Positions 1,530 through 63,732 of a stretch of DNA of 64,000 nucleotides are shown in pieces. How positions within the stretch are numbered: position 1 is the stretch's first letter; every line of letters starts with the position of its first letter. The notes beneath the pieces are model-generated. The model was not told the origin of the DNA. It saw only the letters and a list, made by a program, of their open reading frames with translations, and searched no databases. A program made the position numbers and the translations under genes. This DNA is from an uncultured virus (IMG/VR IMGVR_UViG_3300035670_000151) (taxonomy: Duplodnaviria; Heunggongvirae; Uroviricota; Caudoviricetes): positions 1 to 64,000 of the IMG/VR virus record IMGVR_UViG_3300035670_000151; one strand, 5' to 3'.

Positions 1530-1946
1530 ATGAAGATTGATCCATCTAAGAAATATGTAACTGTAAGCGGCCATAATGCCCGCATCATCTGCACTACTAA
1601 GAAAGGCGATTATCCAATTGTCGCTCTAGTAGAAAGCGGCAAGAAGTGGGGCAGTGATGAAGCCCATGAAGAGATTGCTTACTCTTACAATAACGAAGGT
1701 CATTATTGCGGTGCTATTACCGCCTACAACGCCACTACCGGCAAGTATGAACATTCGCAGCATCCGCTAGACCTAGTAGAACCACCGGTGATGATGAGCA
1801 AATATACCAACGTTTACACCGATATTACCGGGGCATATTATGACACTCCAGAGGATGCCAAAAGAAACGCCGGTAAAGATAATCACGCTGGCTTAATCAA
1901 GGTAGACTTTGTAAATGGCAAGTTATCTAACGTCACCGTCCTATAA
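1530..1946 (+). CDS. hypothetical phage protein
   Basis: ORF with RBS, in operon. Confidence 0.75.
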   Translation: MKIDPSKKYVTVSGHNARIICTTKKGDYPIVALVESGKKWGSDEAHEEIAYSYNNEGHYCGAITAYNATTGKYEHSQHPLDLVEPPVMMSKYTNVYTDITGAYYDTPEDAKRNAGKDNHAGLIKVDFVNGKLSNVTVL

Positions 1947-2169
1947 ATGGCCGGAAGAATGGGTTGATTGGCTTCCCGAAGACGAGGAAGAAAGTTAATA
2001 TCCGTTAAAAACGCATTTATACAACTATAATAAAAACAGCCCAAACGTCCTTATAAATGTTTACAAATAAACGCTAAATAAGGGTAATTTGGGCTGTTTT
2101 TAAGAAATGGCTCTAAATTTCAGAGTCGCTAAAAACTCTTGTCGAAACTATCAGCCTCACAGGTGTAGA

Positions 2170-4633: not shown

Positions 4634-5026
4634 TTGGTTTCGCACGATCTACATAATTTAGCATTAATTAGGCTAATAGCGGAAGGCAAGTCATGGGTGC
4701 CAACTAACCGTGAACTATATAAGGTGATAGACTTTCTTAGAGGCGATGATTTCATGGCCTTTAAGATATACGAAGATGACGTAAATAAATGGCCCGGTGC
4801 CGAATACACTTTCTATAGAGACAGTAAAAACCGCCACAAGATCGGCAGTGTAGCTTTCTACGACAAAGGCCATGACAGCAGTTATACCCATGCTGACGAG
4901 GTAGAACAATGGAAGATAGAAGAAGCAATAGCCAAGCTGAAAGAACCGTCTACTGCAACATTATCTTCCAAGATCAAGTGGCATGTGGGTTTGGCTGTGA
5001 AATCATCACTCTCCCCTACAGCGTAG
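4634..5026 (+). CDS. hypothetical protein
   Basis: ORF lying between repeat blocks. Confidence 0.55.
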   Translation: MVSHDLHNLALIRLIAEGKSWVPTNRELYKVIDFLRGDDFMAFKIYEDDVNKWPGAEYTFYRDSKNRHKIGSVAFYDKGHDSSYTHADEVEQWKIEEAIAKLKEPSTATLSSKIKWHVGLAVKSSLSPTA

Positions 5027-5394
5027 TAGCAGCGGGTTGTAGCGTTATCCGGCAAGCTCTACCCGAACGGATAGGCTATGTCCTAGCATTCCAGTATCAT
5101 CACTTTAGAACCGGCAAGGTTGTGACTTTGGATCGCTGGAAATTGGGACTTGAGAACCGCTACTTTTGGGAACCGGCTGACTTCCAATTTTGGGAACCGG
5201 CTGGAAATCAATATAGACTTTTCAAGCCGGGTGAACTGACCCTGTTCATGGCGGGGAGGGTCGGCAGATAAGGTTAGTGCCCTATTTAATCCCGTTCCTA
5301 GAAAATAAATAGTTCGCGATATGGCCCTGATTATGTTACCCCGTAAGGGCAGCGAATCGGGGTGATTCGCGTTATTTAATGTGGGGTTAAATAG

Positions 5395-13048: not shown

Positions 13049-13078
13049 TTGACCGAATCACGAATCCGCCCCTAGATA
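13049..13078 (+). promoter_or_regulatory. sigma70-type promoter with two GAATC
   Basis: TTGACC-GAATCACGAATCC…TAGATA; closely resembles the promoter at 10009. Confidence 0.75.
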
Positions 13079-20548: not shown

Positions 20549-20571
20549 AAAAAAAGGCCCCGAAGGGCCTA
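20549..20571 (-). terminator. intrinsic terminator of the RNA operon
   Basis: AGGCCC-TTCG-GGGCCT followed by T-tract. Confidence 0.8.
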
Positions 20572-20729: not shown

Positions 20730-20813
20730 TGGTGCCCTCTCTCGGACTCGAACCGAGACGGATCAACCGGCAGATTTTAAGTCTGCTGCGCCTACCAATT
20801 ACGCCAAGAGGGC
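20730..20813 (-). tRNA. tRNA-Leu(TAA)
   Basis: Class II cloverleaf, CCA. Confidence 0.93.
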
Positions 20814-20936: not shown

Positions 20937-21013
20937 TGGTGGACCCTCTGGGATTCGAACCCAGCACCTACAGATTAAAAGTCCGTCGCTCTAACCAAAT
21001 GAGCTAAGGGTCC
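20937..21013 (-). tRNA. tRNA-Lys(TTT)
   Basis: Cloverleaf, loop CTTTTAA, CCA. Confidence 0.94.
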
Positions 21014-21229: not shown

Positions 21230-21339
21230 TGGCGGGACGGGGAGGGATCGAACCTCCGACTATCTGGCCTTGTCTTGGGGTCCATCACCCTCAAAGGGCT
21301 TAGACAAGGTTTCGTCTTCTACCGCTGAATTACCGTCCC
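21230..21339 (-). ncRNA. tRNA-like RNA with the anticodon arm replaced by a long stem
   Basis: Acceptor GGGACGG/CCGTCCC-G-CCA, D and T arms present, CCTTGTCT/AGACAAGG insert. Confidence 0.75.
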
Positions 21340-21341
21340 GT

Positions 21342-21438
21342 TGGAAGCGCGAGAGGGATTCAAACCCCCGTCTTCAATCCTCCGAAAGCTGTTTTGTCTG
21401 CATACTTCTGTCCAGAAGCACACTCAAACTACCGCGCT
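21342..21438 (-). ncRNA. tRNA-like RNA with expanded D arm and weak anticodon arm
   Basis: AGCGCGG/TCGCGCT-T-CCA, T arm GGGGG-TTTGAAT-CCCTC, extra GTGCTTCTG/CAGAAGTAT stem. Confidence 0.65.
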
Positions 21439-21439
21439 A

Positions 21440-21517
21440 TGGGGCCTTAGGGTTGGATTCGAACCAACGACCTTCCTTATTTATCGGACGCTCTAACCGG
21501 ACTGAGCTACATAGGCC
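21440..21517 (-). ncRNA. tRNA-like RNA with degenerate anticodon arm
   Basis: Canonical D and T arms, CCA; anticodon arm TCC-GATAAATAA-GGA. Confidence 0.7.
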
Positions 21518-21518
21518 A

Positions 21519-21567
21519 TGGTGGGGAAACCGAGCGGTCAGACCAATGACTTTACGCGATTATCCCC
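21519..21567 (-). ncRNA. 49-nt CCA-ended minihelix
   Basis: GGGGATAATCG…CGGTTTCCCC-ACCA. Confidence 0.5.
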
Positions 21568-21574
21568 ATATGTA

Positions 21575-22395
21575 ATTAGCAAGCTGAGAATACACTTACT
21601 AAGGGCAGTCTTAAACCCCTTATTGTTTAGGGCCTTTTCCACTATAACCCGGTCAAGGTATCATAGTAACTACCAACACCGCCATTTTATTAATCGCTGG
21701 CATTTGCGATATCACTACAAGCTACTCATAGTATCTTAATCCCATTGAAGTTTTACCTCCATTAAGCTCCCGCTAAAGAGCAATGAGTTCTTCCACTACA
21801 AACAATCCATCCTTGCGAGACTTCATGCCCCCACTCTAGGTAGGGCTTAGGTGCCTTTCACTTATAGCTGGACAAGGCTTTGCGTTGATGAATCAACTGC
21901 TGGATTTGAACCAACAATCAATGGATTAAGAGTCCATCGCATTACCGTTATGCTAAGTTGTTTCCAGTTAAGACGTGCTTGTCCAATGGTATCATTCCCT
22001 TTTGGGGAACAACATGCCACACGCCTCATGTCTTTCGCCTTGCGGGCTACTCAACGGTTACGTAAAGTGTCTCCACCTTTGGTAACTGGCTAATGCTCTT
22101 CCACGCTAATGGTCGAACTATTACCCTTATGGTTCACTATCGACTTCGAATAAGTTTTGCTTGGTGCAGGTGTTTGCGACTTCACTAGCTCACCGATTAG
22201 CTCTGCTAGTTATCCTTTCGGACCTAAAACCCTTATCCTTCAATCTATCCCCTACTTGTATAGAGGAACCTTTCGGTCAGTTCCATGTTGCTTAAGTTGA
22301 CCTATTACTAGGCGGCTTGGTTTGGCTCCTAACCTTTCACCAGATTACTCTAGCTTATCCGCTTCAAGCAGCGACCGGTTCGTTTCCTTGCCGGT
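21575..22395 (-). ncRNA. GOLLD-like giant ncRNA (~820 nt) with an embedded tRNA
   Basis: ORF-free, many GNRA-capped hairpins, GTAACCGTTGAGTAGCCCGCAAGGCGAAAG and GAAAGGCAC segments, terminal hairpin AGTAAG-TGTATTCTCAG-CTTGCT, own promoter, tRNA-cluster context; recognised from memory of the family. Confidence 0.75.
21891..21962 (-). tRNA. tRNA-Lys(CTT) embedded in the GOLLD-like RNA, no CCA
   Basis: ATGGA-CTCTTAA-TCCAT, D and T arms intact, imperfect acceptor stem. Confidence 0.75.
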
Positions 22396-22401
22396 GATCT
22401 C

Positions 22402-22430
22402 TATCTAGGCGACGAATCGATTCGGTGCAA
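22402..22430 (-). promoter_or_regulatory. promoter of the GOLLD/tRNA operon with overlapping CGAATCG/CGATTCG
   Basis: TTGCAC-N17-TAGATA. Confidence 0.8.
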
Positions 22431-22511
22431 GAGAAAAATGCACCAAGCCCAAACTTTTTTTCTTGGCCCTGATCTTATATTTAATCTAGTATTATTTGAT
22501 TAAGGTCAAAT

Positions 22512-22540
22512 AAAAACGGGGCCGTTAAGCCCCGTTTCTA
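22512..22540 (-). terminator. terminator after terC
   Basis: AAACGGGGC-TTAACG-GCCCCGTTTTT. Confidence 0.75.
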
Positions 22541-22548
22541 TTAGCTTA

Positions 22549-23148
22549 TTAGGAAGTCCAAGACACGATGACTGGAACGTCCTGATAGATCAGATGACCC
22601 GCGATATAGAGGACCAGCAGCAAGCCGAACCAAGCCAGCCAACGATACTTCTCAATGAGTCTCGCTACCGCATTGGCAGCAAAGATCATGATGAAGATCG
22701 ACAACACGATACCGAAGATGAGCGCGAAGTAATGATCCCCGGCAGCACCAGCAACGGCAAGAATGTTATCGATGGACATCGAAAGATCGGCAAGAGCAAC
22801 GGCGAAGAGTGCGGAACGATAGTTCGCAGCAGCCGTTACGTTCTCCGTGCTACCATCAACGATACCATTGTCCCTGATATCCTTGAACATACCCCACGCC
22901 ACATAGAGCAGGGCAAGACCACCGGCGAGTCGGATACCGGGAATCTGTAGCAGGTAGGTCGCGAGGAACAGCAGAACGATGCGGAAACCTGCGGCCATGA
23001 ACATGCCGTATTTGATGACCTTCTTACGCTGTTCGGCGGGAAGGCTGGCGGCTTTTGCCCCGATAATAACGGCGTTATCACCGGAGAGAACGATGTCCAG
23101 CAGAACGATACTACCGAACGTCATCAGGTTAGCAAGTAACCATTCCAT
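22549..23148 (-). CDS. terC: TerC/YjbE family membrane protein
   Basis: DIVLSGDNA.II, ADLSMSIDN.LAVAGAA; start 23148 overlaps the terB stop (TAATG). Confidence 0.92.
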   Translation of the reverse strand: MEWLLANLMTFGSIVLLDIVLSGDNAVIIGAKAASLPAEQRKKVIKYGMFMAAGFRIVLLFLATYLLQIPGIRLAGGLALLYVAWGMFKDIRDNGIVDGSTENVTAAANYRSALFAVALADLSMSIDNILAVAGAAGDHYFALIFGIVLSIFIMIFAANAVARLIEKYRWLAWFGLLLVLYIAGHLIYQDVPVIVSWTS

Positions 23149-23594
23149 TATAGCGCATACTCCTGCGGGCGAAGACCGAGCTTGACGCAAATGGCCCGCG
23201 CCACCTGCTGTTCGGAGGGTTGGAACTCATTGTCGGCATTGGCCACGGCCAACATGCCAAGCATGATGACCTTTGCACCATCAGTGCCAGCAGCCTTTTC
23301 GATGCTCTCCATAAGAGCAACCTTACCAGCTACGGCAGAGAGGGACATTTCTTCGGCGCAGTCATCGATTGCCTTAGCAACCTCCGACGACTTGAAGGAA
23401 GGAAGTTTCTTGGCGATGACGCGGCCAAGAACCACCTTCTCTTCATCCGATACGTTGCCATCAGCGGCAGCGACCAGATAGGAAGCTTGGACGGTGCGAA
23501 TGAAAGTCGCCTTGTCGGACATGCGGCTAAGAGCCTTTTCAGCATCAGCCATGAAGTTGGAGGCGATGCCTTTGAGGCTATCGAGGAAACCCAT
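23148..23594 (-). CDS. terB: TerB-family protein
   Basis: LVAAADG.VS.EEK … VANAD.EF..SE…..IC..LGL. Confidence 0.9.
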   Translation of the reverse strand: MGFLDSLKGIASNFMADAEKALSRMSDKATFIRTVQASYLVAAADGNVSDEEKVVLGRVIAKKLPSFKSSEVAKAIDDCAEEMSLSAVAGKVALMESIEKAAGTDGAKVIMLGMLAVANADNEFQPSEQQVARAICVKLGLRPQEYAL

Positions 23595-23705
23595 ATTAAA
23601 CCCCGCTACTAAAAGGGGTAGTAGAAGCATTTCTTCCTACTTCTACTACCCCAAGGTTATTCAGAACGATACCAACTAACTAGGTTGGTGATGTATTGCC
23701 GGCGA

Positions 23706-24305
23706 TTAGTCGGCAATGGCCTTGTTGATGAGGGCCAGCGGTTCCATCGAGTCCGCTTCGGTGACGCTCACAACGTCCACGATGTCGAACTTGCCGGTCA
23801 ACTGGTCGTCCAGATGATCGAGATAGTTCCGCGCCGCCTTGTCGTCGCCGATCTGGATGAAGAGGAACGTCAGGTCTTCATCCTTCGCGATGTTGTTCGA
23901 AGCATCGGTGATGAGCTTGGCGACCAGCGCCTGATCGTTCGGCTCGCCATCGGTGAAGATGACGGCGAAGGTCTTCTTGCCGGTCTTCTTCTGCTTGTCG
24001 ATGGTCCACGCGATGGCATCATGCAGCGGGGTCGAACCACGCGGACCACGCGAAGCGAACAGCTTGTCGATGGTGGCGGACGTAACGCCTTCTTCGACTT
24101 CGAAGTTCGGGCCGAACACACCGACATCGATGCCGTCAGCGTCGAACGGTTCGATGGCGCGGATGAAGCCCAGCAGCGACTCTTGCATTTCCTGCCAGCG
24201 GGTCTTCCCCGGCATCTTGACGGACGGATTGCCCATCGAACCCGAAGCGTCGATCAGGGCAACGAAATCGAATTCAGATGCCGTTTCGGCGTTCAACTGA
24301 GTCAT
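23706..24305 (-). CDS. vWA-domain protein (Ter-associated)
   Basis: MIDAS DASGSM, GSTPL, IFTDGEP, FIQIG.D..A..YL..LDD. Confidence 0.92.
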   Translation of the reverse strand: MTQLNAETASEFDFVALIDASGSMGNPSVKMPGKTRWQEMQESLLGFIRAIEPFDADGIDVGVFGPNFEVEEGVTSATIDKLFASRGPRGSTPLHDAIAWTIDKQKKTGKKTFAVIFTDGEPNDQALVAKLITDASNNIAKDEDLTFLFIQIGDDKAARNYLDHLDDQLTGKFDIVDVVSVTEADSMEPLALINKAIAD

Positions 24306-26421: not shown

Positions 26422-26498
26422 TGGTGCGCGTTACAGGGATCGAACCCGTGGCCTGTCGGATTAGGGGCCGACTGCTCTACCAACTGAGCTAAACGCGC
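26422..26498 (-). tRNA. tRNA with an 8-nt anticodon loop (CCCCUAAU), identity undetermined
   Basis: Otherwise canonical 77-nt cloverleaf, stem GTCGG/CCGAC, CCA. Confidence 0.8.
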
Positions 26499-54405: not shown

Positions 54406-54782
54406 TGAGAAACTATACTAACTATATCGGTATCCCATTTAAATATGGGGGAAGAGACAGAAAAGCACTAGACTGTTACGGACTTTATATGCTATTATCT
54501 AAAGAATTAGATGGCGTCCAAGTTCCTGACGTTACTTCCCCCGACACATTAGAAGTTATTGCCGACGTAGTATCGGTCGAGAAACTTAAGTGGAGAGAAT
54601 GCGGCCTAGAAGAAGGCGCATTAGTTCTCTTCTCTATCAAAGGTTATGGTGCCCACGTAGGTTATGTAACCGGCCCAGATACAATGATCCACACATGGGA
54701 AAAGACTAACGGCGTAACCATCGAACGCCTTTCAAGAGGATGGACACACAGGATTTTAGGTTGTTATAAATATGAAGACTGA
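54405..54782 (+). CDS. NlpC/P60 tail assembly protein (gpK-like)
   Basis: IGIPF..GGR….DCYGL; HVG; MIH. Confidence 0.9.
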   Translation: MRNYTNYIGIPFKYGGRDRKALDCYGLYMLLSKELDGVQVPDVTSPDTLEVIADVVSVEKLKWRECGLEEGALVLFSIKGYGAHVGYVTGPDTMIHTWEKTNGVTIERLSRGWTHRILGCYKYED

Positions 54783-57700
54783 GAAGTTTATTAAGGTTGG
54801 TATTCTGTATAATGCGTTCGACCCATCAAAGGTTGAACACAGTGAGATTCTATATAGAAAGAATACGACACTAGCACGCTATCTACACGACCTACCAAAG
54901 GATTGTGAATGGAAGATCGGCCTTAATGGGACTCCGGTAACTCTTGAAGAACATGGTAAGACACGCCTAAAGCCTACTGATACAATTCAGCTAGTTGTAG
55001 TTCCCCGTGGTGGCGGTGCCAAGAACATTCTACGTATGGTGGCCATGGTCGCCCTTGTCGTAGGTGCTTTCTTCCTATTTGCCCCAGCCGCAATTGGTGG
55101 TCTAGCTCTTCTAGGTGGTTCAGCCCTAGCGGTTGGTATCGGTATGTCGGTATTCACCCTAGCTGGTGGTCTACTAATTAACGCCCTATTAGCTCCTAAA
55201 ACTCCTAAAATCGACAACGAAGAATCCTCATCATACGGTTATGATGGGGCTAAAAACACGGCTAAAGAAGGCGTAGCAATCCCGGTAGTATACGGGGAAT
55301 ACCGTGTAGCTGGTAACTATGTTGACCTTTACACCGAGAACGTAGGCGACGACCAGTATCTATATGGTAGAACTGTTCTATCAGACGGTCTAATCGATGG
55401 CGTTTCAGCGCCTTACCTAAACGATCAGCCAATCACAAGCTACGATGCCGTAACTTGGGGATTCACTGCTGGTAGCGCAACAGAAACTGTAAACCCTCTA
55501 TTCAGCCGTTCAATTAGTCAGGTAACAAAGAATGCCGAACTAACATACGCCAACGGCTACATGACACACACTACTACGGAAGAGATTGACCGCTTCCAAG
55601 TTAATCTAGCTTTCCCTAAGGGTATTGTCCACTTCACTACGAAGAAGGGCAATAAGGATTGGCATGAGTCGGTTGTAACCGTAGAATACAAGCTAGCAAG
55701 CGCTTCAACTTGGACGCAGCTAAACGGCGGCAATACAGACCCTCGTTGGCCTTCATGGGCGTTCAACTTCACCGATAAGCGCGCTAAAGTAATCCGTAAA
55801 ACCATCGAATCACAGACTCTAACTCCGGGTATCTATAATATCCGCGTAAGAAAGATTACGCAGAACCTAGACGAAGATCATGATATGGACCAGACGATTG
55901 TAACCGATATCGGTGAAATCGTTACTGGTGGAACGACTCTACGTCACGTAGCTAACGCCTACTACAAGATCAAGATGAACGAACAGCTAAGCAATGTTCC
56001 TAACATTACTTGGCTAGTAAAGGGTGTTAAGGTCAATCACTATGACATTAACGGTAACGTAACCCAAAAGGCATGGACAGACAACCCAGCGTGGATTGTT
56101 CTAGACATGCTAATTGGCGAAGAGCGCGGAACACCCGGAATCTATTCTATCGACTTCCCAGCGTTCGTAGAATGGGCGCAATGGTGCGAAGACAACAGCC
56201 TAAAGTTTAACGGTGTATTCGACACCACAACTACCCTATGGGATGCTTGCGTTGACGTTCTAAAGATCGGTCACGCTGCATTCTCTCGCGTAGGAACAAA
56301 GCTATCACTAGCTATCGATAAGCCACAACAGCCAGTAATGCTATTTGGTCCGGGTAATATCTTCAAAGATACATTCTCGATCAGCTACATTGCTATGGCA
56401 GACAGAGCTAATGAGTTCGAAATTTCTTATTACGATAAGGAAGACCTAAACACTCAGAAGACCATCCGCGTAGTCGATCCAGAGGCAGACCAGAGAGGCG
56501 ATGTCCCTCGCGCTGTTTCATACTCAGTTCCGGGTATCGACAACTTCGATCAGGCTCTACAGGAAGTTTGGTATCAGCTATATAATAACCGCTATCTAAG
56601 ACGCACTGTAAGCTTTGAAGCCCCGGTTGAATCAATCGGTCTAGGCATTGGTGACGTTGCCCTAATTCAACACGATGTTGTTAATTGGGGTGTATCAGGC
56701 CGTCTAGGCGCTGGTTCAAACGAACTAGTCATCAAGCTAGATCGTCCAGTAACAATGGAAGATAACAAAGACTACTCGATCCTAGTAATCGGTAACGCTG
56801 CCTCAAGAGGCACTTATCAGGTTGTAGGCAGCAGCGGTAATGTTGTAACCCTAGCTGGAACTAACGGTAAAGTCCTAACCCTAGAAAACTGCAAGCGTCT
56901 AGTTCAAGGCGAAGTAGATCGTTCAATCGAAGCTATCAACGTAGTTGGTAACAGCGCTTACGTAACTGTAGGTGGTGATAACGATTTCGTAACAGGAACT
57001 AACGCTACCGTTTGGGACACTGATGTTATTGAAGAAAGAGACGTTGTTTACGTTGAAGGCACAACCGATACCATTACGGTTGCTACAGCTTTCGGCGCTG
57101 CCCCTGCTCAATATTCTAACTTCATGTTCGGCGACAAGGAAATCGTAAAGAAGCCTTACCGTCTAAAAGCTCTAACGGGAACTGGTTTCGACCAGCGTAA
57201 GCTAACGTTCGTAGAATATAACGAAGCCATTTACAATCCGCCAGAAACAATCGTGCCTTATCCAGCTACAACAGAGCCAAAGACGGTTCTACATGTTCGT
57301 AGCTTAGCGTTTGCGCACGACCAGTATGGTTCATACGACAATACGTCCGTAGACGGCGTTCTATCATGGCAGACAGGTCACATTAAGAACTATGGCGGTG
57401 CCGACATTTACATGTCAATCGGTGACGCCGAATTCACATTCTATCAGACTATCTTCAACACAAACGAATGCCAGATCAAGGTAAGCACTGACCAAGAAGT
57501 AGCGGTTAAGGTAATCTCATTTAACACCGATCTAACAAGAGCAAGCTCAGGTGCGGCTCCTACTCTATCTCTAGAGGTTGACAGTAAAGCATCCGTTCTA
57601 GACGCCCCTACAGCCCTGTCAGTGGCCCAGATCAGCTATTTGGCTACCGCACTAGTGGAAGTGATTTGGAACGGCCCTGATGGGCTTACAACCGACGAAC

Positions 57701-60700
57701 AGACACGTATCCGCTATCGTGTTCAAGTGAAACCAGAAGGCAACACCGAATGGGACGAATATGGCGTAACAGATCAATATTATCTAAGAGTGGGCGACTT
57801 AAGAGTTGGAACGCATGAATTCCGCGTTCGCTCTGAGATTGGTAATTCATTCTCAGATTGGAGAACTGTAAACTTTACAACTTTCACTACTACGGAAACT
57901 ATTCAACCCGGTGCTACTAATGGCTCAAGCCCAAGCGAACAAGCTCTACTTGAACAATTAGAAAGAGACGCGGAAGCTGCTAAAGATAGCATCGAAGAAT
58001 TAATTGAGACTTATGGAACGACCGCATCAGCCGCTCAAAGTGCTGCCGAAGCGGAAGGTTTTAAAGTTGCTGCTGAAAACGCTAAAACAGCTACGGAAGG
58101 TTTAAAATCTGATGCTGAAATCGCCGCTGCTGCTGCCGAAGTAAGTAGACAAGCTAGCGAACAAGCCGAAACAGATGCTAATTTACTTAAGCAAGCTGCC
58201 GAAGCTGCAAAAACTGCTTCTGAACAAGCTAGAGATAATGCTAGTGGATCGGCTAACGCAGCTAATGGTTCAGCGCAAATCGCTTCTACTAAAGCTGATG
58301 AAGCTGGAATTAGTGCAACCGCTGCCCAAGCAAGTGCGGTTGTAGCCTCTACGGCCGCCCGTGCGCTACTACCATCTACATTTACCAATGCGGATAGCTG
58401 GTCCAGTAATTGGGTCGGCGCAACTGGTAAAATCACAGACGACGCTAGGTTCACACTAGTCAATGATACTACCTTTGGCAATGTACTTAATGTTAATAAC
58501 GTTCCTGCGTTTGCACCTCATATTGTGCCTAAGGGCGACATTGAGCTTGTTCCTGATCGTATTTTTGAAATCTCTGTCCAATGGATGCTTCGCTCTGGTC
58601 AGAATGGCGATAACCCTGTCAACGGCATTCTATGGGCTGTAGGTATTAAACCTGATGGTAACGCAAACGGCACGTATAATATTCCAATTAATATCACAGT
58701 AGGTGGTGTTGGTTGGGGCACAGGCTATGGCTTCAAGTTAGATAAATTCGATGTCCCTTCTAATGCTTTATTAGCAGACGGTTATACTAAGATTAGACCT
58801 CTAATCCGTATTGATAATCAGGGTGTGTTCTCTTTACGCACTCTGTCAATTCGTGATGTCACTGCCGAACGTGCGGCTAAAGGCTTTGCCGATGCGTCTG
58901 CCGAATCCGCTAGTACTGCAAGTATTAAAGCTACCGAGTCTGGAAACTCAGCTTCATCAGCTAATACAAGTAGAGTTAATGCTGAAACTGCGGCAGGTAA
59001 CGCGAACGCTTACCAGCAGCAAGCAAGCCAGTCCGCACAGGATGCTTCCGGTAGCGCTCAAACGGCGGGCAATCAGGCTGGTGCCGCTGCAACATCGGCT
59101 TATAATGCTGGGCAATCTGCGAATGCCGCATCTAACAGCGCTCAAACCGCTTCTACTAAAGCTGATGAAGCTGGGAATTCAGCCAACGCAGCTAATAGCA
59201 GCAAAGTAGCAGCGGAGAGCGCCTTTGCTTCCGCCAAGGGCATTCTTGTAAATTCAGGACCAACCTCTTTTAGAGACTTGTATTCTTGGACACAAGATTT
59301 TAGCGGCGGCGCAGGTGATCTTTCTGGTGACGCACGTTTTAGTGTTAGAACTACTAATGGCGTAACAGGTCTTGGTGTCGATAACCGTCCACACTTTAGC
59401 CCACATATTGCAAGCAAATCCTTATTCACTCTATCACCCGGTCGCAGGCTTCGTGTCAACCTTAAGTGGTTGATTGTAGATGCGAGTTCTGGGAATCCGC
59501 AAGTCTCCTTGTATCTTATCGGTCGTCGCTCTAATGGCACTGATTGGGGTATTAGTACAGCCTTTACTATTCAATCTGGGCAAAATGGCTGGGGTGAAGG
59601 AAGTGTCTATGCGCATCATAGTTTTGAATGCTCCGCAGATGATTTCATCGCACAAGGTGTTTACGCTGCACGTACATTAGCTCGAATTGATGTTGGTGGT
59701 TACTACAAACTTGACTCTATGTTTGTAGAGGATATTACTGACGTATACAATAGCTGGAACAATGCTAATGCATCGGCAAGTAGCGCTCAAACTGCGAGTA
59801 CAAAAGCCGATGAAGCAAGCCAGTCTGCTAATGCTGCAAGTCAAAGTAAAACCGATGCGCAAACTGCAATGGGCCAAGCTCAGACTTTTGCCGGTAACGC
59901 AAGCACTTCTGCAAATAATGCAGCGGGTCATGAAGGTAATGCCTACACTTATTCACAGAATGCTAGCCAATCCGCAAATAATGCTAACAATTCTGCTAAC
60001 GCTGCTGCTGGTAGCGCACAAACAGCTTCTACAAAAGCAAATGAAGCGAGTGTTTCTGCTAACGCTGCTGAAACTTCTAAAGTTTCAGCTTCTAATATCG
60101 TTCGTGCTAATTACCCTTCTGTTTTTAATGATCTGAATGATTGGTCATGGGATTGGGGTACAGCGTCCGGTTCCCTTAGCAGTGATTCACGTTTTATTCT
60201 AGACGAGTCTAGTGATGGTCTTGGTAGAAAATTGGGGGTTAGCAATGTTCCTCATTTCACACCCCACATTGTTTCTAAAGGGTATTACCCAATTGTTCGT
60301 GATCGCAGATATAAGATCACGTCTAAGCTGCGTCTTCGTGGTGGACAAACTGGCTCATCTGTCAGCTTTGCACTTTTCTTTATCGGTATAAAAGACGGTA
60401 GTTTTCAGTCAGGCGATTATTGGAATAATGCTTCACAGAGCTTCACTGTTGGGGAAGGCCAAGAAGGCTGGGGCAATGGTCTTAATACTTCTTACATTGA
60501 AGTTAATTCAAACACACTATGGGATAATGGTGTTCGTTGGATTCGTCCTCTTCTACGCATTGATAGTCAGGGTTACTATTGGGTTACTTCACTACAACTT
60601 GAAGATATCACTAGCGCTAATACAGCTAAGAATTATGCTGATGCAGCGGCCCAAAGTGCAAGCACTGCAAGTATAAAAGCCGACGAAGCTGGAAATTCGG

Positions 60701-63700
60701 CTTCTGCTGCTAACACAAGTCGTACTAACGCCGAAACAGCCGCCAATAATGCTAATACTTATCGCGGTCAAGCCGAAACCTTCCGCAATGAAGCAAGTGT
60801 TTCCGCTAGTAATGCATCAGGTAGTGCAAATACAGCAAGTCAACAAGCAGGTCTTGCTAGTGGCTCTGCTTATAATGCAAGCCAGTATGCAAATGCTGCA
60901 AGCAATAGCGCAAATACAGCCACAACTAAAGCCAACGAAGCAAGCAATAGTGCATCTGCCGTTAATGTGTCTAAGATCGAAGCATCTAGTTACGCATCTG
61001 GCAATCTAATCGGTAAAGCTAATTTTACTGATGGTCAGAAGGGTAACTGGTCCGGTGCAGTTACTGTACAATGGGACGGTGGAATTAATGCATACGTCCT
61101 TCAACAAACAGCGCGTGATGTTCTTGAAGGCGAGCTTAAGGATGGAAATTGGGCTAGCCGTCGCTTCCGCATGACAGGTAATGCCGCTGCGTGGAATGGT
61201 GTTCCTGCACGTATCGGTTTCCAAACTAAAGACGTCAATGGTAATATCAACTACCCTACGATTCTTGCTCGACCGGCTGGCACAGGTTATGGCGACTTCT
61301 CCGGTGAATTTGTTCTAGGCAACGATGTTGTACAAGCGCGGCCTTTCCTGCAATCGGCTAACGATAATGGTGAAACAACTCACGGCATTAATTGGCGTTG
61401 GTTCCGAATTGAGGATATCACCTCTGAAAAGAATGCAGAGAGTTTTGCAAATGCCGCATCAGGTTGGTCTAATTCAGCCAGTAGTGAGGCCAATCGTGCA
61501 AGTGGTCGCGCTGATGCCGCTAATGGTTATGCCAATAGCGCCGAGTCTTATCGTAACGATGCTTATACTCATTCGCAAAATGCTTCAACCTACGCTTCAC
61601 AGGCGGATGGTTATCGTAGTGCTGCACAGTCTGCTTCTAATCTAGCTGCTACCTATTCCGCAGGTGGTGGTAATATGATTGGTAACAGCGAATTCTTGTC
61701 TAAAGATGGCTGGTCAGCTTATGCTAACGGCGCGGGCTTTGACCAGTGGGAAATCAACTACCCATTAGGTGACGCATGGCATCCCGAAGGCAAGAATGTA
61801 TTAACTATCCATCAGAATAATGGAGATACTGGTCTATATGGGCAGTGGTTCTATGGGTTCATGCCTGTTGTCGGTGGGCAATTCTATGAATTCACGGCTA
61901 AAGTGGCTGCGCATCGTGCTAACGCCGAAGTACGTATTGATTGGTACGATGTCGATGGTAACGGTATAAGCTCTACCTATTCGGGACAAATGGCTACGTC
62001 TAGTGGTGGTCGTCAAATCGGTAATTACAGCCATATGGTTGCAAGAGGCTACGCACCTGCTAATGCCGCCAAAGCGCTTGTTGTAGTGCTTAAGATGGGC
62101 ACTTTCTCTGGTCAAGGTGATAGCTGGCTTTGGTTCTGTGAGCCTATGTTCCGTAAATATTATGAAGCAGGACAATCCCCTTCTACTTACGCTGCCGGTA
62201 ATGGTCTTGATACCACAAAGACTTTAACAGCCAACGTAGCTCAGAATGCCATTGCAATTGCTGATGCGAACACGCAACTTGGTAGCCTTCGTACTACCGT
62301 TCAAGCTGGTAATCCTAACCTGCTAAAGAATGGCGGGTTTGAGCGGGGCATTACCGGTTGGGTCAACGGCTATGGCAGTTGGACGGCCATTTCCAATACT
62401 TGGGGGCCTTACGCTTACATCTGGGTGGGCGCTACCATGACGCAAGACCGTTACTATTACATGGACTCTGCGCATATGGAAGTTGATCCAAATACGCAGT
62501 ATACTTATAGCTGTACCTATGGTGTTAGTGGTAATAATGGCAACATTCGCGGTTACACCGAAATTCTCTGGCTCAATAGTAGTGGTCAAGAGGTGAGTCG
62601 CAATGGCGCCACCAGCCGTAACGCAAGCTTTTGGTTTGAGCAAAACAGACGTGAAGTTGCTACAGTAACAAGTCCTTCTAATGCTGTAAAAGCATTGGTA
62701 CGTGTCATCCTATACGCACCTAATGGGGCTACTGTAGACCAAATGGCGGTTCGTCAACAGAAGTTTGAGAGAGGCAGTGTTGCAACACCTTACTCGTCAG
62801 AAGCGACCGTCAACACAATCAACGAGGCTATCGTTACAACAGATGGTAAAGCTACAACTGCACTTGCCCGTGCTGCTGTGAAGGTTGATGTCAATGGTTT
62901 AATTACTGGATGGGAAACCAATAACAACGGGCAAACTGGTAACTTCAAAGTGTTTGCAGATAACTTCTCTGTGGAGCCTTCTAGTAGCAGTGGAAATCGT
63001 ATGGCATGGTCTGATGGTACGCTACGCATCTATGCTGGTGACACGATGTACGTTGTCGGTAAAGGCTTCGGTTCTTCAAACCAGTTCCTTGAATGGACAG
63101 GACCAGCCCAGACTAACCTTGCTAACTGCACAGAAGCTAACGCCATCAAGTTTGTGAAGACTAACGGCCAAGCTTACTACGCTGGTGGTATCATTGCTGG
63201 AACTCTAAAGAACTCAAACGCTTGGAGCGGCCTAGCAGCAACCGGGTCTACAACGGCAGGTCCGTTCGGTTCTAACGGTAATGATATCGCGGTCAATGCT
63301 TCATATTCAATGAGTTGCAACGGCCTACTATCATTCCCTGCTACCTCAACAGGATTGAATAACTATAACTCGGCAATCTCAAACTTGCAGAGCAACGGTT
63401 ACAATATTTCAGGAAGCAACCAAGACGGTCACTACGGTGGCAAGAGTGACAATAGAACAACCGACTTTACCCTGTCACTAGTGAAAGGTTCGACTACCGT
63501 AAGTACCCTAAACACCTGCAACGGGTCCATCACACTAGAAGGCCAAGCGCCTGTTCCGGGCGATAGTCAGGCCGGTTGGATCAAAAGGACATATAACTAT
63601 TGGGCATCATTCACTTGGAACGATACCGAAAAATCAACAGCTAACAGAACCTTCACCGTTAACATGTCACGTTTCAATCCGCCAGACACAATAGCGTCAC

Positions 63701-63732
63701 AAAGAGTAAGTATAACAACAACGGAGTGGTAA
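54772..63732 (+). CDS. giant tail tip/central fibre protein (gpI-gpJ-like with repeated CBM-like modules)
   Basis: PVVYGE…AGN, WTDNPAW…D, FN3-like region, Ala/Ser linkers alternating with globular domains, NLLKNG.FE domain. Confidence 0.93.
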   Translation: MKTEKFIKVGILYNAFDPSKVEHSEILYRKNTTLARYLHDLPKDCEWKIGLNGTPVTLEEHGKTRLKPTDTIQLVVVPRGGGAKNILRMVAMVALVVGAFFLFAPAAIGGLALLGGSALAVGIGMSVFTLAGGLLINALLAPKTPKIDNEESSSYGYDGAKNTAKEGVAIPVVYGEYRVAGNYVDLYTENVGDDQYLYGRTVLSDGLIDGVSAPYLNDQPITSYDAVTWGFTAGSATETVNPLFSRSISQVTKNAELTYANGYMTHTTTEEIDRFQVNLAFPKGIVHFTTKKGNKDWHESVVTVEYKLASASTWTQLNGGNTDPRWPSWAFNFTDKRAKVIRKTIESQTLTPGIYNIRVRKITQNLDEDHDMDQTIVTDIGEIVTGGTTLRHVANAYYKIKMNEQLSNVPNITWLVKGVKVNHYDINGNVTQKAWTDNPAWIVLDMLIGEERGTPGIYSIDFPAFVEWAQWCEDNSLKFNGVFDTTTTLWDACVDVLKIGHAAFSRVGTKLSLAIDKPQQPVMLFGPGNIFKDTFSISYIAMADRANEFEISYYDKEDLNTQKTIRVVDPEADQRGDVPRAVSYSVPGIDNFDQALQEVWYQLYNNRYLRRTVSFEAPVESIGLGIGDVALIQHDVVNWGVSGRLGAGSNELVIKLDRPVTMEDNKDYSILVIGNAASRGTYQVVGSSGNVVTLAGTNGKVLTLENCKRLVQGEVDRSIEAINVVGNSAYVTVGGDNDFVTGTNATVWDTDVIEERDVVYVEGTTDTITVATAFGAAPAQYSNFMFGDKEIVKKPYRLKALTGTGFDQRKLTFVEYNEAIYNPPETIVPYPATTEPKTVLHVRSLAFAHDQYGSYDNTSVDGVLSWQTGHIKNYGGADIYMSIGDAEFTFYQTIFNTNECQIKVSTDQEVAVKVISFNTDLTRASSGAAPTLSLEVDSKASVLDAPTALSVAQISYLATALVEVIWNGPDGLTTDEQTRIRYRVQVKPEGNTEWDEYGVTDQYYLRVGDLRVGTHEFRVRSEIGNSFSDWRTVNFTTFTTTETIQPGATNGSSPSEQALLEQLERDAEAAKDSIEELIETYGTTASAAQSAAEAEGFKVAAENAKTATEGLKSDAEIAAAAAEVSRQASEQAETDANLLKQAAEAAKTASEQARDNASGSANAANGSAQIASTKADEAGISATAAQASAVVASTAARALLPSTFTNADSWSSNWVGATGKITDDARFTLVNDTTFGNVLNVNNVPAFAPHIVPKGDIELVPDRIFEISVQWMLRSGQNGDNPVNGILWAVGIKPDGNANGTYNIPINITVGGVGWGTGYGFKLDKFDVPSNALLADGYTKIRPLIRIDNQGVFSLRTLSIRDVTAERAAKGFADASAESASTASIKATESGNSASSANTSRVNAETAAGNANAYQQQASQSAQDASGSAQTAGNQAGAAATSAYNAGQSANAASNSAQTASTKADEAGNSANAANSSKVAAESAFASAKGILVNSGPTSFRDLYSWTQDFSGGAGDLSGDARFSVRTTNGVTGLGVDNRPHFSPHIASKSLFTLSPGRRLRVNLKWLIVDASSGNPQVSLYLIGRRSNGTDWGISTAFTIQSGQNGWGEGSVYAHHSFECSADDFIAQGVYAARTLARIDVGGYYKLDSMFVEDITDVYNSWNNANASASSAQTASTKADEASQSANAASQSKTDAQTAMGQAQTFAGNASTSANNAAGHEGNAYTYSQNASQSANNANNSANAAAGSAQTASTKANEASVSANAAETSKVSASNIVRANYPSVFNDLNDWSWDWGTASGSLSSDSRFILDESSDGLGRKLGVSNVPHFTPHIVSKGYYPIVRDRRYKITSKLRLRGGQTGSSVSFALFFIGIKDGSFQSGDYWNNASQSFTVGEGQEGWGNGLNTSYIEVNSNTLWDNGVRWIRPLLRIDSQGYYWVTSLQLEDITSANTAKNYADAAAQSASTASIKADEAGNSASAANTSRTNAETAANNANTYRGQAETFRNEASVSASNASGSANTASQQAGLASGSAYNASQYANAASNSANTATTKANEASNSASAVNVSKIEASSYASGNLIGKANFTDGQKGNWSGAVTVQWDGGINAYVLQQTARDVLEGELKDGNWASRRFRMTGNAAAWNGVPARIGFQTKDVNGNINYPTILARPAGTGYGDFSGEFVLGNDVVQARPFLQSANDNGETTHGINWRWFRIEDITSEKNAESFANAASGWSNSASSEANRASGRADAANGYANSAESYRNDAYTHSQNASTYASQADGYRSAAQSASNLAATYSAGGGNMIGNSEFLSKDGWSAYANGAGFDQWEINYPLGDAWHPEGKNVLTIHQNNGDTGLYGQWFYGFMPVVGGQFYEFTAKVAAHRANAEVRIDWYDVDGNGISSTYSGQMATSSGGRQIGNYSHMVARGYAPANAAKALVVVLKMGTFSGQGDSWLWFCEPMFRKYYEAGQSPSTYAAGNGLDTTKTLTANVAQNAIAIADANTQLGSLRTTVQAGNPNLLKNGGFERGITGWVNGYGSWTAISNTWGPYAYIWVGATMTQDRYYYMDSAHMEVDPNTQYTYSCTYGVSGNNGNIRGYTEILWLNSSGQEVSRNGATSRNASFWFEQNRREVATVTSPSNAVKALVRVILYAPNGATVDQMAVRQQKFERGSVATPYSSEATVNTINEAIVTTDGKATTALARAAVKVDVNGLITGWETNNNGQTGNFKVFADNFSVEPSSSSGNRMAWSDGTLRIYAGDTMYVVGKGFGSSNQFLEWTGPAQTNLANCTEANAIKFVKTNGQAYYAGGIIAGTLKNSNAWSGLAATGSTTAGPFGSNGNDIAVNASYSMSCNGLLSFPATSTGLNNYNSAISNLQSNGYNISGSNQDGHYGGKSDNRTTDFTLSLVKGSTTVSTLNTCNGSITLEGQAPVPGDSQAGWIKRTYNYWASFTWNDTEKSTANRTFTVNMSRFNPPDTIASQRVSITTTEW

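Follow-up and report, generated by a model that had tools for sequence, protein, structure and literature searches.

The window, i.e., the whole 64,000-nucleotide stretch of DNA analyzed here (positions 1 to 64,000 of the uncultured virus record IMGVR_UViG_3300035670_000151 of IMG/VR), carries 22 tRNAs together with genes for a large terminase, a tape-measure protein, and a GpJ-like tail protein, as called by ARAGORN and Pfam. On its minus strand, genes for VWA-domain, TerB, and TerC-family proteins are followed by a long RNA gene of the GOLLD family and by a series of tRNAs and tRNA-like elements. The features of this locus are listed below in the direction of transcription.

24305..23706, minus strand: VWA-domain protein, further upstream (Pfam PF00092, E = 1.1e-6)
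23630..23148, minus strand: TerB, further upstream (Pfam PF05099, E = 4.6e-16)
22549..23190, minus strand: TerC-family membrane protein of 213 aa, the upstream gene (Pfam PF03741, E = 4.2e-44)
22510..22541, minus strand: intrinsic-terminator hairpin with U-run, ending the TerC transcript just upstream of GOLLD (fold)
22402..22430, minus strand: putative promoter TTGCAC-N17-TAGATA with -10 core CTAGAT (motif and recurrence)
22374..22395, minus strand: leader hairpin, downstream of the promoter and ahead of the first conserved helix of GOLLD (weak fold: -7.2 kcal/mol, z = -1.45)
22053..22374, minus strand: GOLLD 5' domain, as assigned by a profile HMM, two covariance models built from relatives, and a fold z-score
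22032..22052, minus strand: junction motif GAGUAG-hairpin(GCAA)-GAAAG, conserved, linking the 5' domain to the 3' domain
21581..22029, minus strand: GOLLD 3' domain, the part modelled by Rfam (RF02032)
21890..21962, minus strand: tRNA-like module with anticodon CUU (Lys) in the GOLLD linker (ARAGORN; Rfam tRNA, 61.3 bits)
21444..21516, minus strand: degenerate tRNA-like element with a 9-nt anticodon loop, 65 nt beyond the 3' end of GOLLD (Rfam tRNA, 33.4 bits; no tRNA called by ARAGORN)
21233..21339, minus strand: 107-nt tRNA match carrying an insertion (Rfam tRNA, 36.9 bits, sensitive scan only; no tRNA called by ARAGORN)
21013..20937, minus strand: tRNA-Lys(UUU), CCA encoded (Rfam and ARAGORN)
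20813..20730, minus strand: tRNA-Leu(UAA), CCA encoded (Rfam and ARAGORN)
20555..20570, minus strand: terminator-like site, the first same-strand one downstream of GOLLD (6-pair stem with 5 G-C pairs, T-run)

The GOLLD RNA gene and its two domains

The original prediction had described this region as a GOLLD-like RNA of some 820 nt, devoid of a credible ORF and rich in GNRA-capped hairpins, and had proposed its examination by Infernal with the GOLLD and ROOL models. Performed with both models, this examination upheld the assignment. GOLLD (RF02032) is matched at 22029..21581 on the minus strand with 183.6 bits, above its gathering score of 150, and no match to ROOL or other large-RNA families is present among the 23 Rfam matches that reach the gathering score in the window. 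The RF02032 match covers model positions 1–416, the full length of the model without truncation, and lies far beyond chance, since its E-value is 4.7e-50 for the 64-kb window. Membership of this RNA in the GOLLD family, said to go back to Weinberg et al. 2009, can thus be considered confirmed on sequence grounds. The longest stop-to-stop frame in 21575..22430 comprises 80 aa, and the four longest ATG/GTG/TTG ORFs in or adjoining the region (80, 73, 55, and 118 aa) give no Pfam match at E ≤ 0.01. The hairpin motifs of the original prediction are all present on the minus strand, namely CCGAAAGG at 22276..22269 and 22221..22214, CCGCAAGG at 22045..22038, CCCCAAAAGGG at 22007..21997, and, as the terminal AGTAAG...CTTGCT element, AGTAAGTGTATTCTCAGCTTGCT at 21600..21578.

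Counted from 22374, or from 22395 with the leader included, to 21581, the RNA is ~794–815 nt long. It shares with the GOLLD family a length of ~800 nt, a variable 5' and a conserved 3' domain, its phage origin, the neighborhood of a tRNA array, and a tRNA in a variable linker, whereas it comes from an uncultured siphovirus and not from Lactobacillales, Mycobacterium, or a lake sample.

The 5' half of the RNA, which lies outside the Rfam model, was compared with models built from 17 other phage GOLLDs, leaving out the window and the seed motif. Two short covariance models (R1 and R2) were used in place of one, and the middle of the 5' domain is covered by the sequence HMM only. The HMM matches 22311..22099 (E = 3.3e-6), R1 matches 22374..22288 (20.7 bits, E = 8e-4), and R2 gives a borderline match at 22127..22046 (17.3 bits, E = 0.05), the E-values of R1 and R2 being rough values from shortened calibrations. 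Each of these two covariance-model matches is the sole one up to E = 10; the HMM listed two further weak matches elsewhere in the window (E = 0.86 and 5.1). Together, the HMM, R1, and R2 matches are colinear, lie on the correct strand, and span 22374..22046. Moreover, the 5' region folds with z = -2.40 on the minus strand versus z = -0.02 on the plus strand, and in the 5' alignment of the relatives compensatory changes are seen in 59 of the 84 predicted pairs. This covariation comes from the clade and not from the lineage of the window, since only identical or near-identical copies of the window RNA were found and no close relative. Judged by these homology searches, the 5' half is the GOLLD 5' domain and belongs to a well-populated clade of phage GOLLDs. 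The two domains are joined by the junction motif, which is 93–96% identical over 21–29 nt to GOLLDs that are otherwise unalignable and was found at 27 viral loci by an exact pattern search.

A decaying relic, or a chance match with no functional RNA behind it, would be in keeping with the modest z-scores of the leader hairpin (-1.45) and of the tRNA fold (-1.39), and with the fact that covariation specific to the lineage of the window has no closely related lineage to draw on. Nevertheless, the family match covers the complete model and exceeds the curated cut-off, both halves of the RNA are matched, a 100% identical copy resides in a second, independent contig of 108 kb, and near-identical sequences, most pieces at least 99% alike, occur in library contigs of four studies. 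This explanation, which we consider extremely improbable, is already contradicted by the Rfam, 5'-domain HMM and covariance-model, and identical-copy results. As a whole, the region ~22395..21581 on the minus strand is best explained as a GOLLD RNA gene, a new member of a known family, a reading to which we assign a probability of roughly 0.85.

Transcription, source phage, and distribution

The TerC gene is closed by a hairpin of -21.6 kcal/mol (z = -6.49), whose stability was reached by none of 200 shuffled sequences (0/200), although it is absent from the list of a simple terminator scan. Right behind it, TTGCAC at 22430..22425 and TAGATA at 22407..22402 (minus strand) are separated by a 17-nt spacer. 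The original prediction had taken these boxes for the promoter of the RNA; they are indeed present, and a promoter of its own for GOLLD at 22430..22402 is plausible, albeit inferred from sequence: the boxes match the E. coli-type consensus weakly, at 6/12 positions by our own count, and a sigma-70 scan of the window did not call them. The plausibility derives from their location behind a strong terminator, their recurrence in a syntenic relative, and their resemblance to the RpoD boxes of Caulobacter, given as TTGaCgS / GCtANAWC in the available text of PMC8144410. In the syntenic contig (L026) of a related phage, the same arrangement, TTGACG-CGAATCGAT..CCCC-TAGATA, follows TerC and has one further occurrence, and it is also found in the window at 13049..13078 on the plus strand. 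Among the relatives, 8/17 carry a promoter with 10–12 of the 12 consensus positions upstream of the 5' domain, at a distance of 48–56 nt in seven cases and 135 nt in one. Hairpins equivalent to the leader are also located behind the promoter of L026 and behind the canonical promoters of relatives. Across the window, the pattern TTGNNN-N16-18-TAGAT[AT] shows a weak excess, with 10 sites versus a mean of 4.6 and a maximum of 8 in 30 mononucleotide shuffles. A further pattern, GAATCG-N8-13-TAGAT, occurs once in the window and is not significant on its own, since 24/100 shuffles also carry one. At the other end, the site at 20555..20570 is the likely end of a GOLLD–tRNA transcription unit.

The source phage is a siphovirus of ~108 kb and 45% G+C that bears GOLLD in a tRNA-rich arm; the identical GOLLD copy lies in an IMG/VR contig of 108,412 bases. 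Its terminase is nearest to those of Rhizobium phages (54% identity) and of SSU5-like phages. The alphaproteobacterial phage of the original prediction is only suggested, through the promoter type and these Rhizobium-phage terminases.

No close relatives of this GOLLD were found beyond identical and near-identical copies, and its likeness to other GOLLDs is limited to short motifs. A BLAST comparison of the locus with 50,697 phage records yielded nothing beyond matches of 42–89 nt, in 18 Caulobacter phages. At E ≤ 0.01, GOLLD was detected in 0/5 of the phages with the nearest terminases (B1VFA, RHph_X66, and RHph_Y2_11 of Rhizobium, and hairong of Pseudomonas) and the L026 contig, and in the last no GOLLD was found by cmscan either. 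A scan with the pattern P1 returned 21 loci, of which 20 were scanned with Rfam, leaving out L019 (the phiCbK-type phage Karma); GOLLD reached the gathering score in 11/20, a count that includes one copy of the source phage and two duplicate pairs, and seven P1 loci are apparently chance matches in coding DNA. In the genomes of 185,579 species, the junction motif was confined to two MAG contigs, one labelled Rickettsiales and the other Bryobacterales, so that no usable host signal was obtained. Metagenomes returned nothing for a 34-nt pattern specific to the window and two distant GOLLDs for a 22-nt junction motif.

Contigs from RNA-labelled libraries of four studies (X6, X9, X15, and X16) carry parts of GOLLD, mostly at 99% identity or higher; the RNA labels of X6 and X9 are guesses, and DNA carry-over is possible in the libraries. 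The X6 contigs at 21602..22372 and the X15 contigs at 22050..22301 lie inside GOLLD and none falls on TerC or the flanking tRNAs, although missing cover is uninformative as to a discrete transcript or its ends. Contig matches of 90–95% over the tRNAs, with apparent 'joints' at 21006 and 21453, were discarded as stemming from the tRNAs of other organisms.

The tRNA-like module and its variation

A tRNA-Lys without CCA in the middle of the RNA formed part of the original prediction and was borne out by ARAGORN, which calls tRNA-Lys(CUU) at 21890..21962 on the minus strand with no CCA behind it, and by Rfam (61.3 bits). The module occupies the linker left unpaired by the model (positions ~63–160), which separates the first 3'-domain hairpin from the helix that follows. 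According to the available portions of PMC12286853 and PMC12990946, embedded tRNAs of other GOLLDs are likewise placed in a variable linker after this hairpin.

In a canonical bacterial tRNA-Lys, the 3' CCA is encoded or can be added behind a discriminator that is not paired, the acceptor stem is paired throughout, and orthologues share the anticodon. The module has no CCA, starts with A1, contains an A2.A71 mismatch, and extends its acceptor helix by two pairs into the flanks, and its anticodon is not conserved. Missing CCA alone is no bar to tRNA function, and RNase Z-type trimming followed by a CCA-adding enzyme could mature such a module. However, it is the only CCA-less tRNA among the 22 of the window, and weight can be given to this absence because the other 21/21 encode CCA. 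The relatives exhibit the same partition: a linker tRNA is called by ARAGORN in 24/32 of their loci, and CCA is encoded in 1/22 unique embedded tRNAs versus 65/76 unique flanking ones. Of the 11 flanking tRNAs that lack it, ten belong to L016, where no tRNA carries CCA, and one to L042. This near absence of CCA on the embedded tRNAs, and its near universality on the other tRNAs of these phages once L016 is set aside, suggest an insert meant to stay in the RNA.

The variation of the module is concentrated in its anticodon arm, while its elbow is conserved (GG in the D-loop and GGUUCAA in the T-loop). On similar bodies, the linker tRNAs of the relatives display anticodons for Lys, Arg, Ser, Leu, Gly, His(AUG), Ile, Gln, Cys, and Met, those for 'Ser' and 'Leu' without a long variable arm. 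All five embedded anticodon loops inspected (the window and four relatives) retain U33 and have a purine at position 37. In the closest GOLLD pairs, the flanks are 0.91–0.92 identical and the tRNA modules just 0.68. Moreover, a 532-nt contig of the public run X6, whose RNA label is a guess and which may contain DNA, covers the module and extends by more than 31 nt beyond it in both directions, and 6/6 of its differences from the window fall inside the 73-nt module, a distribution with a chance of (73/532)^6 = 6.7e-6 if sites are assumed equal and independent. These differences convert the anticodon CUU into UCU and, in a compensatory manner, the pair A30-U38 into C30-G38. The embedded tRNA-Lys therefore looks like a non-standard, built-in, and fast-changing module and not like an ordinary tRNA gene.

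It is conceivable, though unlikely in our judgment, that the module is a working tRNA-Lys(CUU), cut out by RNase P and a 3' nuclease, completed with CCA, and used to decode AAG for the phage, GOLLD being its precursor or a timed store ('inhibited storage'), in which the assembled cage would protect the tRNA against processing for as long as it stays closed. Such a storage role has been published for tRNA-Phe in a Mycolicibacterium GOLLD, as stated in the available part of PMC12990946. The module also gives a full-length tRNA match (61.3 bits, model positions 1–71) with a canonical cloverleaf, U33, and A37, the constancy of U33 and purine 37 would also fit real decoding, and it is the sole CUU Lys isoacceptor in the window, both free-standing Lys tRNAs being UUU. 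Against this role stand, besides the nearly exclusive lack of CCA on the embedded tRNAs and the defects of the acceptor end, homologous bodies with anticodons that they could not serve (Ser and Leu without the long arm, His AUG), the passage from Lys to Arg in a near-identical variant through two anticodon changes, and the splitting of GOLLD in two that excision of the module would entail. In addition, the 'pseudo tRNA' within the GOLLD of M. aubagnense gave no separate Northern signal, i.e., no processed form was detected, in the experiments described in the accessible text of PMC6582537.

The predicted cage and the possible role of its insert

GOLLD RNAs of known structure form cages: the env-38 GOLLD is a 14-mer whose linker faces the interior (PMC12286853, available sections) and the S. 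agalactiae GOLLD a 12-mer, with PDB codes 9MEE and 9L0R, respectively (PMC12990946, available sections). The window RNA shows the same order of domains as both, with the linker likewise after the first 3'-domain hairpin, and two of its hairpins map to the branched P21 region of the model in the Rfam alignment, a mapping of our own with low posterior probability. By contrast, the linker of env-38 is disordered and ~42 nt long, whereas that of the window holds a 73-nt tRNA-shaped fold, and the 5' domain measures ~320–345 nt in the window versus 420 nt in env-38. The tRNA-array GOLLD of Mycobacterium/Mycolicibacterium (J13/15) contains a tRNA-like gene, as does that of the window (PMC6582537 and PMC12990946, in the parts available), from which the window differs in the CCA present on all of its 21 other tRNAs and in the anticodon change between near-identical variants. 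ROOL, another large RNA found in phages and associated with tRNAs, also forms a cage and has its linker inside (PMC12286853, same sections); its sequence and fold are unrelated to those of the window RNA.

In cultured phages, the comparison leads to the phiCbK-type phages of Caulobacter, where RF02032 scores 165.3 and 169.7 bits (JX100813 and PQ287320) and 18 records have matches in all. Identity to the window reaches 93% over 42 nt across the junction motif and the first 3' hairpin's stem, and the linker contains, at the position of the window's module, a tRNA-like element of type Gly UCC that also has no CCA. In contrast to the source phage, these phages are cultured, of jumbo size, and high in G+C, and their 5' domains cannot be aligned to that of the window by BLAST. 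In the GenBank records of the 18 Caulobacter phages, no feature is annotated under the RNA part matched by BLAST; the two phiCbK-type records inspected have no GOLLD annotation and only the inner tRNA-Gly is annotated. A limited literature search, over texts available in part, did not turn up a paper that connects GOLLD with Caulobacter phages.

As part of the reading as a GOLLD RNA gene, the following mechanism is proposed. An RpoD-type promoter of its own (22430..22402), directly downstream of the TerC terminator, would drive GOLLD, and the transcript may continue through the two degenerate tRNA-like elements and the pair of tRNAs as far as the terminator at 20555. The RNA would, by homology with the cryo-EM structures of env-38 and S. 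agalactiae GOLLD, assemble without protein into a dihedral nanocage of 12 to 14 copies, with 5' domains as caps, 3' domains as rings, and linkers extending into the lumen. Since the linkers would point into the lumen, about a dozen copies of the embedded element would be displayed inside the cage. This element appears made to remain in the RNA instead of being excised as a decoding tRNA, as indicated by the absence of CCA, the flawed and extended acceptor helix, the conserved D- and T-loops, and the freely changing anticodon.

A more specific and quite doubtful extension regards the insert not as releasable cargo but as the working surface of the cage, a multivalent tRNA decoy whose dozen-odd anticodon stem-loops, on a conserved elbow with an exchangeable anticodon arm, would bait or titrate a host factor that reads anticodon arms, e.g., an anticodon nuclease of phage defense. 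Anticodon nucleases are known to target Lys and Arg tRNAs. An arms race with such a factor would alter the anticodon and explain the rapid diversification, from Lys to Arg between near-identical strains, and the loss of CCA together with the flawed acceptor end would keep the insert from processing. The variable arm on a conserved elbow, the X6 variant with its six differences confined to the module and its pairing kept (6.7e-6), and a module identity uncoupled from the identity of the surrounding GOLLD are in line with this role. However, the binding partner is hypothetical, the variation could equally result from recombinational cassette exchange or relaxed constraint, and a protein would have to enter the cage, given that the linker faces its interior in the structure reported by the available sections of PMC12286853. 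If true, GOLLD would be an RNA-only organelle of counter-defense.

For the reading of the locus as a GOLLD RNA gene, the wider meaning lies in the comparison that it prompted. To our knowledge, the function of GOLLD has remained unknown since its description in 2009, despite the solution of the cage structure in 2025, and the example in the window adds little to the definition of the family. The comparison yields three leads. Firstly, the embedded tRNA almost never carries CCA in phages that encode it on nearly all their other tRNAs. Secondly, no part of the RNA changes faster than the anticodon arm of the insert, which varies even among near-identical strains, a sign of where selection is at work. 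Thirdly, the cultured phiCbK-type phages with their unannotated GOLLD offer, together with Caulobacter, a genetically tractable host–phage pair.

Identity of the RNA

A GOLLD RNA had been predicted on the minus strand of the window at 21575..22430, and this prediction is supported by the Rfam covariance-model check. A search of the window with RF02032, the Rfam GOLLD model, gives a match at 22029..21581 (-) that covers model positions 1-416 and scores 183.6 bits (gathering score 150; E=4.7e-50). Two further scans reproduce it, and the window has no match at gathering score to any other large-RNA family of Rfam. All motifs of the original prediction were found in place on the minus strand, including the hairpins CCGAAAGG (twice), CCGCAAGG and CCCCAAAAGGG (once each). 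The stretch is also as devoid of credible reading frames as had been claimed, its longest open frame being 80 aa, and Pfam matches none of the four longest ORFs that lie within it or next to it.

Features of the GOLLD locus, 5' to 3' on the minus strand
22430..22425 (-): TTGCAC, putative promoter box (sequence check)
22407..22402 (-): TAGATA, separated from TTGCAC by a 17-nt spacer (sequence check)
21890..21962 (-): tRNA-Lys(CUU) predicted inside the RNA, called by ARAGORN; Rfam tRNA model 61.3 bits
21600..21578 (-): GOLLD 3' end, AGTAAGTGTATTCTCAGCTTGCT (sequence check)
21516..21444 (-): degenerate tRNA-like element, Rfam 33.4 bits, whose anticodon loop has 9 nt and whose acceptor stem is flawed; no ARAGORN call
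21339..21233 (-): 107-nt tRNA match, Rfam 36.9 bits, which by its length carries an insertion; no ARAGORN call
3' of GOLLD and of the two non-standard tRNA matches (-): tRNA-Lys(UUU), then tRNA-Leu(UAA)
20570..20555 (-): first terminator-like site 3' of GOLLD

Since the Rfam model describes the 3' domain only, the upstream 350 nt were tested on their own. In BLAST, this 5' region lacks similarity to the 5' regions of other GOLLDs save for its last ~25 nt, which form the junction motif GAGUAG-hairpin-GAAAG. An exact search of IMG/VR with this motif returned 27 loci, from which three with too short an upstream sequence and four duplicates were excluded, together with the window's own phage (L057), a phiCbK-type phage (L054), and a divergent locus (L043). 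The 5' domains of the remaining 17 relatives were aligned after removal of the seed motif, and RNAalifold predicts 84 pairs in this alignment, with compensatory changes in 59 of them. The resulting profile HMM has a single significant match in the window (22311..22099, E=3.3e-6 for 128,000 bases searched), the further matches listed having E=0.86 and E=5.1. Two covariance models were built from the same alignment, and each matches the window once, the first 102 columns at 22374..22288 (20.7 bits, E=8e-4) and the last 88 columns at 22127..22046 (17.3 bits, E=0.05). The three matches are colinear and adjoin the junction motif and the RF02032 match. Moreover, the 5' region folds better than its shuffles on the minus strand (z=-2.40) and not on the plus strand (z=-0.02). 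Taken together, the 3' match, the colinear 5' matches, and the minus-strand folding identify the RNA as GOLLD over its entire length (about 22374..21581, with a short leader in addition), adding one more member to a known family.

Putative transcription unit and gene neighbourhood

A TerC-TerB-VWA cluster encoding tellurite-resistance-type proteins (22549..24305 (-)) lies directly upstream of GOLLD and is kept in L026, a related IMG/VR contig. A highly stable hairpin that carries a U-run (22541..22510, -21.6 kcal/mol, z=-6.5) closes the TerC gene and is followed by TTGCAC-N17-TAGATA and then GOLLD. This site, originally proposed as the RNA's own promoter, is present, but its match to the E. 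coli type is poor and a promoter scan made no call. L026, which shares with the window 67% DNA identity in the TerC region and 66% amino acid identity in TerC, carries an equivalent site 3' of TerC (TTGACG-CGAATCGAT..CCCC-TAGATA), followed by a hairpin as in the window; the promoter-like motif also occurs at a second place in L026 and at window 13049..13078. The boxes of this motif are similar to the RpoD consensus of Caulobacter, TTGaCgS / GCtANAWC (PMC8144410). Eight of the 17 relatives have, ahead of the 5' domain, a promoter that agrees with the consensus at 10-12 of 12 positions, at a distance of 48-56 nt in seven and of 135 nt in one, and in some of the others a tRNA takes its place. GOLLD would be transcribed from its own putative promoter and may be co-transcribed with the downstream tRNAs.

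An inverted repeat, GGTGCA-N9-TGCACC (22424..22444 (-)), overlaps the putative promoter's -35 box; it could act as an operator or form an alternative hairpin at the 5' end. Behind the shared promoter-plus-hairpin, L026 contains no GOLLD: positions 4640..5380 hold ~700 nt with no ORF >54 aa, a region whose ends form a long inverted repeat (GACGCTGGA...TTCCAGCGTC), and a tRNA match of 115 nt whose anticodon arm contains 52 inserted nt. Besides this tRNA match, no Rfam family is found there at E<=1.

The tRNA-like module of the linker

The embedded tRNA occupies the unpaired linker of RF02032, 3' of the model's first hairpin. As predicted, it encodes no CCA, whereas all 21 other ARAGORN tRNAs of the window do. 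Its acceptor end begins with A1, contains an A2.A71 mismatch, and has its helix extended by two pairs into the flanks, features by which the element appears to differ from an ordinary tRNA. In the relatives, ARAGORN finds a linker-position tRNA at 24 of 32 loci, and Rfam recovers two that it missed (L014, L020). Among unique sequences from 29 sources, one of 22 embedded tRNAs encodes CCA (locus L032), against 65 of 76 flanking tRNAs; ten of the 11 flanking exceptions come from L016, a locus where every tRNA lacks CCA. GG in the D-loop and GGUUCAA in the T-loop are common to the embedded elements, and their anticodons, borne on closely similar bodies, are those of Lys, Arg, Ser, Leu, His(AUG), Gly, Ile, Gln, Cys, and Met; a long variable arm is missing from the 'Ser' and 'Leu' elements. 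Module identity is lower than GOLLD-flank identity in 55 of 78 pairs: the closest scaffolds are 0.91-0.92 identical, yet their modules only 0.68, and some distant scaffolds have modules 0.93-0.94 identical.

Alternatively, the module may be a stored tRNA, an idea put forward in PMC12990946. All five embedded anticodon loops that were read retain U33 and have a purine at position 37, and the absence of CCA does not by itself rule out maturation, both of which count against a built-in module. However, the sequence evidence favours retention of the module within the GOLLD RNA, and a Mycobacterium study likewise reports no separate transcript for its 'pseudo tRNA' (PMC6582537). A retained module could, speculatively, serve as a display or decoy surface.

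Parts of the window stretch occur in twenty public runs from 11 studies; four DNA runs are its possible source, and four runs labelled RNA were compared with it. These data are contigs, so neither depth nor absent cover carries information. The contigs lie at 21602..21755, 21756..22287, and 22258..22372 (run X6), at 21609..21870, 21938..22187, and 22769..22907 (X9), at 22050..22301 (X15), and at 21361..21511 and 21527..21677 (X16), the last of which runs across the 3' end of GOLLD. The X6 contig of 532 nt spans the embedded tRNA and differs from the window at six positions, all within the 73-nt module (chance of such clustering 6.7e-6, assuming equal, independent sites): two changes turn the anticodon CUU into UCU, two replace the pair A30-U38 with C30-G38, and two convert Watson-Crick pairs into G.U pairs. 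These differences are certainly strain variation; since the RNA label of X6 and X9 is a guess, their contigs only possibly reflect expression.

Among the free-standing tRNAs of the window, C occurs at the first anticodon position only in Met (CAU), Trp (CCA), and an odd CCUA tRNA, and all those of four-codon boxes have U-first anticodons, a minimal-set pattern from which the embedded CUU departs. The CCUA tRNA (26422..26498 (-), Rfam 57.3 bits, CCA encoded) has an 8-nt anticodon loop (CCCCUAAU), read by ARAGORN as a four-base anticodon, and could be of the frameshift- or amber-suppressor type; the window's large ORFs are open under code 11. At another GOLLD locus, L045, a tRNA with anticodon CUA (1997..2073; amber suppressor, 'Pyl' in ARAGORN) and encoded CCA lies ~630 nt downstream of the module.

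The phage, its relatives and the predicted GOLLD cage

The IMG/VR record holding the window comprises 72,366 bases (estimated 65% complete), and over the GOLLD locus the window is 100% identical to a contig of 108,412 bases. Pfam identifies a large terminase, a tape-measure protein, a helicase, TerC, TerB, and VWA proteins, and a GpJ-like tail protein. The latter is a single ORF (54772..63732 (+)) whose FNIII-A domain, of GpJ type, lies close to the N-terminus; its 2,986 aa are an unusually large size for a tail-tip protein of a siphovirus. Terminase identity is highest to Rhizobium phages (54%), followed by Pseudomonas phage hairong (53%) and SSU5-like phages (50%), and the five related records searched contain no GOLLD. 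The G+C content is ~45%. An alphaproteobacterial host is suggested by promoter type and terminase neighbours only.

Among cultured phages, BLAST of the GOLLD locus matches only 18 phiCbK-type Caulobacter phages. RF02032 scores 165.3 bits in phiCbK and 169.7 bits in BL57, each with a tRNA-Gly-like element in its linker, and the GenBank annotation within GOLLD is limited to this inner tRNA. A literature search combining GOLLD and Caulobacter returned nothing on GOLLD in phiCbK-type phages. On the strand opposite GOLLD, about 500 nt ahead of the 3' domain modelled by Rfam, both phages carry a permuted tmRNA (1611..2050 of the phiCbK locus L002, 1545..1984 of the BL57 locus L003; Rfam 71 bits) whose ARAGORN tag peptide ends in AREAIAA, at a site with no annotated feature in either GenBank record.

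According to PMC12286853 and PMC12990946, GOLLD folds protein-free into a closed cage, seen by cryo-EM as a 14-mer (env-38) and a 12-mer (S. agalactiae), with 5' domains as caps, 3' domains as rings, and the linker directed inward. By homology, the window GOLLD would form a like cage, with about a dozen tRNA-shaped modules expected in its lumen. What this RNA adds lies in the features of its embedded module and in its pointer to culturable Caulobacter phages, which provide a test bed for GOLLD.
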